A DNA stretch of 41,103 nucleotides from Escherichia phage Henuyfy11N. Each line of letters begins with the position of its first letter. Position 1 is the first letter of the stretch. Shown here in pieces: positions 40,851 to 41,087 of the stretch. Both the position numbers and the translations under genes were made by a program. The stretch lies in the sequence record PV696613.1. One strand, 5' to 3'. Under the pieces are notes generated by a model. It did no database searches, was not told where the DNA came from, and saw nothing but the letters and a program-made list of their open reading frames with translations.

Positions 40851-40879
40851 TTGACTTTTCACTGAAAATGTGCTAAGCT
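40851..40879 (+). promoter_or_regulatory. sigma70-like promoter (TTGACT-N17-TAAGCT)
   Basis: good -35, 17-nt spacer, TAAGCT -10; preceded by ATGTTGGAATAA and GAATAGTTG motifs also found at 491-517. Confidence 0.45.
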
Positions 40880-40886
40880 CCACCTG

Positions 40887-41087
40887 AGCTTGTGAAGTAT
40901 GAACAAGCGACCGCGGCGCGGGCAGGTAACGGAGCGGGACGTAAGTCCTGAGTGTAGTTACGCTGACGCGTTCGGAAGGGCCATACTCTATTGCTTGTGT
41001 AAAAAGTAACTGGTTTACTGAGATTACGCCGTTTCTATGTTTAAATGATAAGGACTAGCGCCCCGCTTTATGGCGGGGCTTTACTTA
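40887..41087 (+). ncRNA. candidate ~200-nt structured noncoding transcript or regulated leader
   Basis: promoter at 40851-40879 and terminator at 41058-41087 bracket GC-rich sequence with no ORF with SD (only a 17-codon ATG ORF without SD). Confidence 0.25.
41058..41087 (+). terminator. rho-independent terminator immediately upstream of window-end RBS
   Basis: GCCCCGC-tttatg-GCGGGGC hairpin followed by TTTACTT; then GAGAAAGGAGAAAC at window end. Confidence 0.55.

Follow-up and report, generated by a model that had tools for sequence, protein, structure and literature searches.

In phage lambda, transcription from the late promoter pR′ produces an untranslated transcript of ~200 nt, the 6S RNA, which extends to the intrinsic terminator tR′, and passage into the late genes involves Q antitermination. 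To our knowledge, 6S RNA is not noted for a conserved complex fold. The lambda pL N-leader carries nutL and an RNase III-sensitive hairpin beside the N ribosome site, and the RNase III processing sites of phage T7 are repeated two-part hairpins with a conserved internal loop located between a promoter and the next gene. In phage HK022, the put RNA is a cis-acting RNA antiterminator of ~70 nt that consists of two adjacent stem-loops, which bind RNA polymerase and thereby suppress termination (PMC9378689). Here, we discuss a putative promoter-leader unit in front of the spanin, scaffold, and capsid genes of Escherichia phage Henuyfy11N (PV696613.1), the 41,103 nt of which are referred to as the window. 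The leader RNA is 218 nt long (40886-41103, + strand) and extends from the predicted transcription start to the base before the ATG of the i-spanin gene, which is window position 1. Covariance modeling and covariation provide good support for the conclusion that this leader is a conserved structured + strand RNA, the fold of which is kept by compensating mutations. The unit probably acts in cis as a leader, and control of readthrough at its last hairpin (PT) is a possible, although doubtful, candidate for its main job. As a compromise between these two estimates, we lean slightly towards describing the unit as the promoter and 5′ leader of the spanin-scaffold-capsid operon.

The layout resembles that of lambda pR′-tR′, with a promoter at 40851, a hairpin at 41060-41089, and then the spanin, scaffold, and capsid genes. 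In both cases a late promoter is followed by a ~200-nt terminated leader, and the terminator is positioned directly before lysis and then head genes such that readthrough would be needed. The two differ in that no Q-family protein is recognized by Pfam or PHROG among the ~30 small open reading frames (ORFs) here, and in that the fold is the most conserved feature of the present leader while the U tract is lost in Jerseyvirus. With the lambda pL N-leader it shares a length of ~220 nt, an operator-controlled promoter, and small 5′ hairpins followed by a large irregular hairpin by the Shine-Dalgarno (SD) sequence that would affect translation of the first gene. However, it has no boxA/boxB-like conserved loop (the loops of hairpins P1 and P4, see below, vary), no N-like protein was found among the small ORFs, and the first gene encodes a spanin and not a regulator. 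As in HK022 put RNA, two long stem-loops connected by a very short linker (here AA) are located just downstream of the promoter and upstream of terminators. This likeness concerns predicted topology only, the arms being ~120 nt relative to ~70 nt in put and the hosts of the element being virulent siphophages and not a lambdoid phage. Finally, PT (6+3+8 bp with loops) covaries, is repeated in the genome, and has a shape compatible with a T7 RNase III site, but it is shorter (17-18 bp) and present in two or three copies per genome instead of ten. Membership in lambda pR′-tR′, the pL N-leader, or HK022 put RNA, the closest known layouts, is not supported.

For the comparison, 47 related loci were gathered via the spanin protein, in addition to further phages from GenBank, and 38 distinct Kagunavirus and Jerseyvirus unit sequences constitute the final alignment. 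The structure was written by hand from the Kagunavirus and Jerseyvirus folds, and the covariance model was built on 29 Kagunavirus sequences. Standard pairs are found in 96.1% of the pair cells in the 38 sequences, compared to 36-45% in slid controls in which the pair partners were moved by 1-3 columns. Changes on both sides are seen in 24 of 65 pairs (1-6 in the slid controls; none of 500 shuffles reaches 24), the covariation score is 0.224 (≤0.053 in the controls), and RNAalifold identifies nine compensated pairs already on a plain MAFFT alignment of 38 sequences. G-U pairs account for 7.9% of the pair cells and, because pairing drops to 88.5% when the alignment is read on the − strand, the fold belongs to the + strand transcript. 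Moreover, the leader has a minimum free energy on the + strand of −72 kcal/mol (z = −2.6), and the covariance models R1/R2 score 277 bits at the window leader and 59-74 bits (E ~1e-13 to 1e-16) at the copies in Jerseyvirus. Within Kagunavirus, leader identity is 95.5% relative to 86.3% at spanin third codon positions. A preliminary description of this DNA had suggested a structured small RNA (sRNA) or a regulated leader. Folding and the covariance analysis, together with the lack of a conserved ORF (see below), bear out the structured RNA, while the comparative evidence favors a cis-acting leader over an sRNA.

All elements of the leader are on the + strand, and window positions equal 40885 plus the RNA position. 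The 5′-terminal hairpin P1 (GCUUGU/ACAAGC, 40888-40908) starts 2-3 nt from the predicted 5′ end and shows both-side changes in four of its six pairs; a hairpin at the same place is present also in Jerseyvirus (ACGCU/AGCGU) and in phiEap-2 (UUCG/CGAA). It is followed by a long covarying arm, P2-P3-P4 (40911-40975), in which 95-99% of the cells are paired. In P2, residues 40911-13 and 40915-20 pair with 40967-72 and 40973-75 (both-side changes in one of nine pairs), in P3 40923-30 pair with 40957-65 (six of eight), and in P4 40935-40 pair with 40945-50 (three of six). The P4 tip loop, GUAA in the window, is variable (GUUA, GUUAA, and UCACAA). The second arm, P5 (40979-41030), is composed of an invariant P5a (40979-81/41028-30) and a weaker P5b (40985-89/41021-25; 77% of the cells paired), and it encloses the hairpin P7 (41005-09 paired with 41015-19). 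P7 is found in the Kagunavirus type only, where changes preserve its pairs as wobble pairs, and the inner hairpin of Jerseyvirus is a different one (AUAUUG/CAGUAU). The letters that never vary are concentrated where the two arms meet, in ACCGCG, in the core UUCGGAAGGGCC (40971-40982; 3′ strand of P2, AA linker, and 5′ strand of P5), and in the box AGAUUACGCCGU (41021-41032; 3′ strand of P5). The columns of UUCGGAAGGGCC are invariant or nearly so across the Kagunavirus and Jerseyvirus types, and CGGAAGGG(C/U)C is found also in phiEap-2 and GRNsp27.

A single-stranded stretch separates the P5 arm from PT, the two-part terminal hairpin (41047-41089), which is composed of a lower stem GAUAAG/CUUAUC, a middle part of 3 bp, and an upper stem at 41060-41079. 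The lower stem covaries (UAUACG/CGUAUA in Jerseyvirus), the upper stem shows independent changes of G-C to A-U, U-A, and C-G, and the 3′ side, UUUACUUAUC, doubles as the U tract. A tentative closing helix, P8, pairs GUUUCU at 41031-36 with AGAAAC at 41098-41103; it would enclose PT and overlap the end of the SD. One of its pairs is compensatory (U-A to A-U, in nine sequences), three are invariant, and two are broken in Jerseyvirus. Support for the helices is thus uneven: P1 to P4 and PT are well supported, P5b is weak, and P8 is partly broken in one clade. For each of the four leader types tested, folding predicts that most of the spanin ribosome site is paired. Pairing of an AGAUU box with the spanin start (AUGAAUCUU) was also considered and rejected, as inspection of Kagunavirus against Jerseyvirus gives no compensatory support.

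Inside the leader there is a 36-codon ATG ORF (MNKRPRRGQ..., 40899-41009, +), longer than the 17-codon ORF that had first been thought to be the only one in the unit. The ORF would make the unit a small protein gene, and it is annotated as hypothetical protein CPT_Shashou_007, with a ribosome-binding site (RBS) feature, in the Shashou record. The ATG is, however, missing in 11 of the 38 distinct sequences, that is in every Jerseyvirus copy (through an 11-nt deletion) and in two Kagunavirus variants, and a frameshift or truncation disrupts the frame in a further five of the 38, all Kagunavirus variants. Amino acid differences, counted with synonymous changes left out, are scattered along the peptide, a comparison with the PHROG families gave no match, and the same bases build covarying helices. 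These data led us to reject the small-protein reading, which is almost certainly wrong, and, since the ORF is not conserved, the leader unit is regarded as non-coding. Nor is the unit GC-rich as had been stated: its GC content is 0.50, relative to 0.509 for the window.

The leader is preceded by a candidate sigma-70-type promoter with an extended −10 (40851-40879, +), consisting of TTGACT (40851-40856), a 17-nt spacer, TGc (TG at 40871-72, missed in the preliminary description), and TAAGCT (40874-40879), from which transcription is predicted to start at ~40886. The −35 element matches the consensus at five of six positions and the −10 matches TATAAT at three of six, with A at position 2 and T at position 6 kept. 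Owing to the poor match of the −10, a consensus promoter scan of the window made no call at 40851-40879, and a tailored rule (−35 of at least 5/6, spacer of 16-18, TGn, and TAnnnT) finds one site in the window relative to 1.05 expected by chance in random sequence. Support for the promoter comes instead from the conservation of the hexamers in relatives, which keep them while the spacers diverge (TAGACT/TTGACT-17-TGtTACGCT in Jerseyvirus; TGGACT-17-TGaTAACCT in phiEap-2), and not from site statistics. Hence, of what had been called a good promoter, the hexamers and the 17-nt spacer stand while the adjective does not; the promoter is plausible but not significant by itself.

Upstream of the promoter lies an operator-like region (40798-40852, strand not specified) with repeats and a palindrome. 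TTATTCCA is present at 40798-805 and 40807-814, an inverted copy, TGGAATAA, at 40830-837, and a perfect 16-bp palindrome, AACTATTCGAATAGTT, at 40837-852, where it overlaps the −35 element. The window has five copies of TGGAATAA relative to 1.1 expected, three of which are in this region. TATTCC/GGAATA sequences cluster in three regulatory regions, before the scaffold gene (480-516), at 29393-29411 in the early region, where the sites form an inverted pair, and at 40798-40852, and the TTATTCC repeats are retained in Jerseyvirus and phiEap-2. The shared clusters fit one DNA-binding regulator that would act at several promoters. Two motifs upstream of the promoter had been noted to recur before the scaffold gene, and they do: ATGTTGGAATAA occurs exactly twice in the window (506-517 and 40826-40837; 0.17 expected) and so does GAATAGTTG (491-499 and 40845-40853, the latter one base downstream of the position first given). 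Just 5′ of the scaffold gene, at 525-553, there is TTGACA (525-530) and, downstream of it, an inverted repeat with perfectly matched 8-bp arms, AATCCGGG-TGG-CCCGGATT (535-553); no good −10 is visible, and the element may represent an operator or, alternatively, the place at which the spanin message has its 3′ end.

The iteron-like TTATTCC repeats and the palindrome, together with the location of the unit at a mosaic boundary (the upstream neighbors differ among relatives, and the capsid module is exchanged), would also suit a DNA-level element, such as an origin of replication, a recombination linker joining mosaic modules, or a stretch of DNA that serves protein binding only, with the RNA fold being incidental. 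The repeats are, however, positioned upstream of the transcribed part, and both the G-U pairs and the compensatory changes are + strand-specific. An origin at the leader was rejected because the GC-skew minimum is at ~29 kb. We consider the DNA-level explanation highly improbable.

That the leader runs into the spanin gene, as the preliminary description assumed, requires that the two ends of the window are contiguous. The last 404 bases of the window match Escherichia phage BUCT789 (Kagunavirus, Guernseyvirinae) at 100%, and these bases are matched by a total of 352 phage records, the majority of which are from Escherichia and Salmonella phages. Once rotated, the BUCT789 sequence shows full identity to the final 7306 nt and the first 567 nt of the window, joined without a gap, and in both Shashou and BUCT789 the leader stretch is directly followed by the i-spanin gene with the ATG at window position 1. 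Because this order is uninterrupted across the junction in both phages, the ends are contiguous, and the window is a circularly permuted Kagunavirus genome that is near-identical to BUCT789. The SD of the i-spanin gene, AAGGAG (41094-41099, +), begins 14 nt downstream of the terminal hairpin stem (41060-41079), in agreement with the earlier placing of an SD between terminator and ATG; the RBS and the i-spanin are annotated in Shashou.

With respect to these genomes, the window exceeds the BUCT789 record (PQ999132.1; L001/L060) by 332 bp; the size difference falls within 567-33797, both ends being identical. In that record the scaffold gene is labeled "major capsid protein", and the capsid gene and the Hoc-like Ig-domain gene are both labeled "tail protein", all of which are likely annotation slips. 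The major capsid protein (1209-2177) is mosaic, with at least 90% identity in only ~20 phage records, including BUCT789, fTaEco01, HSE2, and Enterobacter phiEap-2. The next-best matches are Serratia phage Smarc3 (78%) and Vibrio phages (62%), and in typical Kagunaviruses, e.g., Shashou, the same leader and spanin are followed by another capsid gene, which is SPP1-like. Immediately before the leader there is a hot spot of insertion (L004 1905-2132, − strand; L052 1675-1887; L056 266-1120). Most Kagunaviruses and phiEap-2 have an opposite-strand gene of 70-75 amino acids there (phrog_26710, function unknown), GRNsp27 has a PAPS-reductase-like gene, and the window has no insert.

How the leader is entered and left by RNA polymerase bears on whether it acts in cis. 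In the window, the Hoc-like/Ig-like head gene is followed by a strong intrinsic terminator sequence, GAAGCCCC-GAAA-GGGGCTTTTT (40766-40788, +), a hairpin that the terminator scan called on the − strand and that has an annotated terminator at the homologous place in Shashou. As judged from its sequence, this terminator would insulate the leader unit from upstream transcription; most relatives instead have the opposite-strand gene there. The promoter at 40851-40879 is the only visible source of spanin transcription. Given the upstream terminator or opposite-strand gene, and PT at 14 nt from the SD, spanin transcription must pass PT. The terminator-like hairpin that had been noted at the end of the unit was called also by the terminator scan (41060-41079; eight pairs, seven of which are G-C, a loop of 4, and the tail TTTACTTATC). 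The corresponding tails in Jerseyvirus, TTAGCGTATAAAG, and in the phiEap-2 type, TGTTACG, have no U run, and Jerseyvirus UUAGCGUAUAAAG is a poor U tract yet forms the 3′ strand of the covarying lower stem.

A promoter and a hairpin that frame a discrete conserved RNA could also mean that transcription ends efficiently at PT, such that the 200-nt product is a free-standing sRNA that acts in trans on host or phage mRNAs or proteins and spanin readthrough is incidental. The early region has a second promoter-like site followed by a PT-like hairpin that is not beside a gene start, and moderately conserved single-stranded stretches (AUGUUUA and the AA linker) could act as seed. The 3′ tail (UUUACUUAU in Kagunavirus and UUAGCGUAU in Jerseyvirus), however, is not the long uninterrupted U tail of an Hfq-type sRNA: the U tract is short and interrupted in the former and absent in the latter, making it a poor 3′ end of this type. 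In addition, no other promoter for the spanin gene is visible, P8 ties the RNA to the spanin ribosome site, and relatives have terminator-less leaders at the same place. Consequently, a trans-acting sRNA appears quite unlikely, and the cis-acting leader is favored: PT adjoins the SD with no other visible spanin promoter, the U tract is unconserved in Jerseyvirus while the helix that contains these bases covaries, distant Guernseyvirinae have other structured leaders without a U tract at this place, and base pairing over the spanin ribosome site is predicted for four leader types.

On the cis-acting leader model, host RNA polymerase would start at ~40886 from the extended −10 promoter, which lies under a TTATTCC/GGAATAA cluster that is probably bound by a regulator. 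The first 218 nt would be untranslated and would fold into P1, the two arms (P2-P4 and P5) at the invariant core, and PT. In Kagunavirus, some transcripts would stop at PT, resulting in an RNA of ~200 nt, and the rest would read through into the spanin, scaffold, and capsid genes. The last hairpin would in this scenario be a leaky or controlled terminator that partly covers the spanin ribosome site, and P8, by closing around PT and covering the SD end, would hold down spanin translation. The invariant two-arm core is most simply viewed as a platform to which a factor from host or phage binds, and this factor might set polymerase passage of PT, or cutting and stabilization of the leader. Activity of the promoter, incomplete termination, clamping by P8, and the binding of any factor are parts that we infer.

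Several points weigh against the unit being the promoter and leader of the operon. The start site, termination at PT, and readthrough are predictions, and the CPT annotators left PT unmarked as a terminator in Shashou. Taken alone, the promoter is not above chance, and its −10 fits the consensus at only three of six positions. The pair counts come from an alignment that had been fitted to the model, and for the most part the changes do no more than set two clades apart. The independent events are therefore about nine and not 145: the Kagunavirus/Jerseyvirus split, L005, L027, L003/L014, L002, and L022/L023, and, within Jerseyvirus, L042, L041/L043, and L044. For P8, the support comes from one compensatory change that distinguishes two clades, and part of the helix is lost in Jerseyvirus. 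Pfam and PHROG comparisons of the ~30 small ORFs recognized no Q- or N-like antiterminator; as many of these ORFs are of unknown function, an antiterminator that is not homologous to the known ones is conceivable. The sole candidate antiterminator pairing, an 8-bp alternative between 40931-38 and 41062-69 in the window, is disrupted in natural variants in which P4 and PT are preserved (L002, L003/L014, and L010/L013/L029), and a riboswitch or attenuator with exclusive terminator and antiterminator folds was rejected for this reason. With respect to possible regulators, the search of the small ORFs for Q-, N-, Ogr-like, or other regulators gave only generic helix-turn-helix proteins and a NinH-like protein, a protein annotated "zinc finger" had no family match, and divergent small genes adjoin the operator region in relatives.

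PT has a counterpart elsewhere in the genome. A second PT module is present in an early intergenic region (29458-29515, +) and consists of a lower stem GUAAC/GUUAC and an upper stem GGGCAGGC/GCCUGCCC, followed by CUUUA. R1 gives 20 bits for it in the window, and its counterpart at this place in BUCT789 receives 25 bits (E 5e-5) from R2. One compensatory change is seen between Kagunavirus and Jerseyvirus. The early-region copies in Jerseyvirus Ent2 score 22.8 and 18.8 bits with R2, and Ent2 has in addition a weak PT match just past the tailspike gene, at the end of the late operon. Since the module recurs downstream of promoter-like sites, it looks like the terminator style of this phage group. 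Alternatively, the leader could serve processing and stability only, with P1 shielding the RNA from RNase E, PT and P2-P4 acting as RNase III-type sites at which cutting would free a stable late mRNA, and transcription being uncontrolled. P1 is at the extreme 5′ end in all three leader types, PT (17-18 bp with internal loops) and the P2-P4 arm (23 bp) both covary, and the repeated PT has a conserved internal loop (GAyUA/CUUUA) reminiscent of the T7 RNase III sites. PT is, however, on the short side for RNase III, the PT-like match at the end of the Ent2 tailspike gene looks like an ordinary terminator, and simple stabilizers rarely need a 120-nt two-arm domain with an invariant junction. Collectively, we regard a role confined to processing and stability as unlikely.

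The surrounding early region has features of its own. The intergenic region at 29170-29633 (460 nt) has no family-supported ORF and carries two promoter-like sites, TTGACA-17-TAAGGT (29213-29241) and TTGCAC-17-TACTAT (29571-29599). At ~29395-29610, identity between Kagunavirus and Jerseyvirus is ~95%, far above that of coding genes, and the region has weak collinearity with the late leader over the 3′ half of the latter (alignment score 49-52 vs 27 ± 5 for shuffles). In Ent2 (NC_023608.1; L124), 1 kb without an annotated gene (37472-38477) lies between an excisionase-like regulator and the first early gene and holds two PT-like modules (37798-37854 and 37960-38031). In the late operon, within 2196-2233, a strong two-way terminator, AAAGGGGC-TACG-GCCCCTTTTT (2196-2220), follows the capsid gene ~10 nt before the SD of the next gene (GTG 2234), and the head-completion genes must therefore be expressed by readthrough. 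The "terminator, then SD" layout thus recurs, and late expression depends on passing terminators; the phage may aid the polymerase in doing so, or it may rely on simple leakage.

Thus far, we have focused on the structure of the leader and its possible roles. Its distribution appears narrow. A 23-base pattern that spans three conserved blocks was found in 41 viral contigs, all of them 40-45 kb Guernseyvirinae genomes or fragments, with one match each. In 185,579 bacterial and archaeal species, each represented by one genome, the same pattern gave 21 matches, only one of which was confirmed by the model. This case is a 738-bp scaffold in a Taishania pollutisoli assembly (NZ_JACVEL010000048.1; L119) with a full Jerseyvirus-type leader (140 bits), and it is almost certainly phage contamination. 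About 500 phage records match the stretch, roughly half of them over the promoter/operator part only. The leader belongs to no Rfam 15 family, since a search of the whole window gave no match at the gathering score and noise only in E-value mode (wcaG at 15.7 bits vs a cut-off of 42, and others), and no tRNA or tmRNA was found.

More distant relatives (phiEap-2, GRNsp27, SE1, and Pantoea AH01) have intergenic regions of 370-500 nt at the same position; in two of them, phiEap-2 and GRNsp27, the TTATTCC repeats are retained and the promoter form is the same. The leaders of all four have an anti-SD helix and end in a two-part hairpin, which shows compensatory changes of its own and lacks a U tract. 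By eye, the TTATTCC repeats, the promoter form, and CGGAAGGG are common to the distant leaders and this RNA. Homology of the leaders of these four phages and of Smarc3 to it was rejected at R1/R2 scores of ≤8.5 bits, and for this reason we treat them as analogous or at most remotely related. In the literature on MB78 and on Guernseyvirinae promoters and transcriptomes we found no description of the leader RNA; one Kagunavirus RNA-seq study reports gene-level data only (PMC12645636). The 1990s record of Salmonella phage MB78 (X87092.1; L050) has a Jerseyvirus-type leader at 867-1059, between ORFs p21 and p11.5, while its "TATA_box" features lie elsewhere; MB78 therefore appears Jersey-like. We rate the leader as a new RNA family of a kind already known, i.e., the cis-regulatory phage leaders.

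As a long shot, the two-arm core (P2-P4, P5, and the UUCGGAAGGGCC/AGAUUACGCCGU junction) might be a new cis-acting RNA that acts on the transcribing host polymerase, directly in the manner of put RNA or via an unrecognized phage protein. If so, polymerase would be carried past PT and past the strong terminators within the late operon, the early-region PT module would be gated by the same system, and the core would be a temporal switch of Kagunavirus and Jerseyvirus. Irrespective of this possibility, the 36-codon "hypothetical protein" in several GenBank records can be corrected as not a gene. Large numbers of Kagunavirus and Jerseyvirus phages are being isolated and sequenced with a view to therapy and biocontrol, while their transcription program is almost unstudied. 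The leader is the best-conserved non-coding feature before their capsid-making genes, and its fold, with natural compensatory variants, provides ready mutants for the timing and dosing of late genes in a virulent siphophage without its own RNA polymerase.

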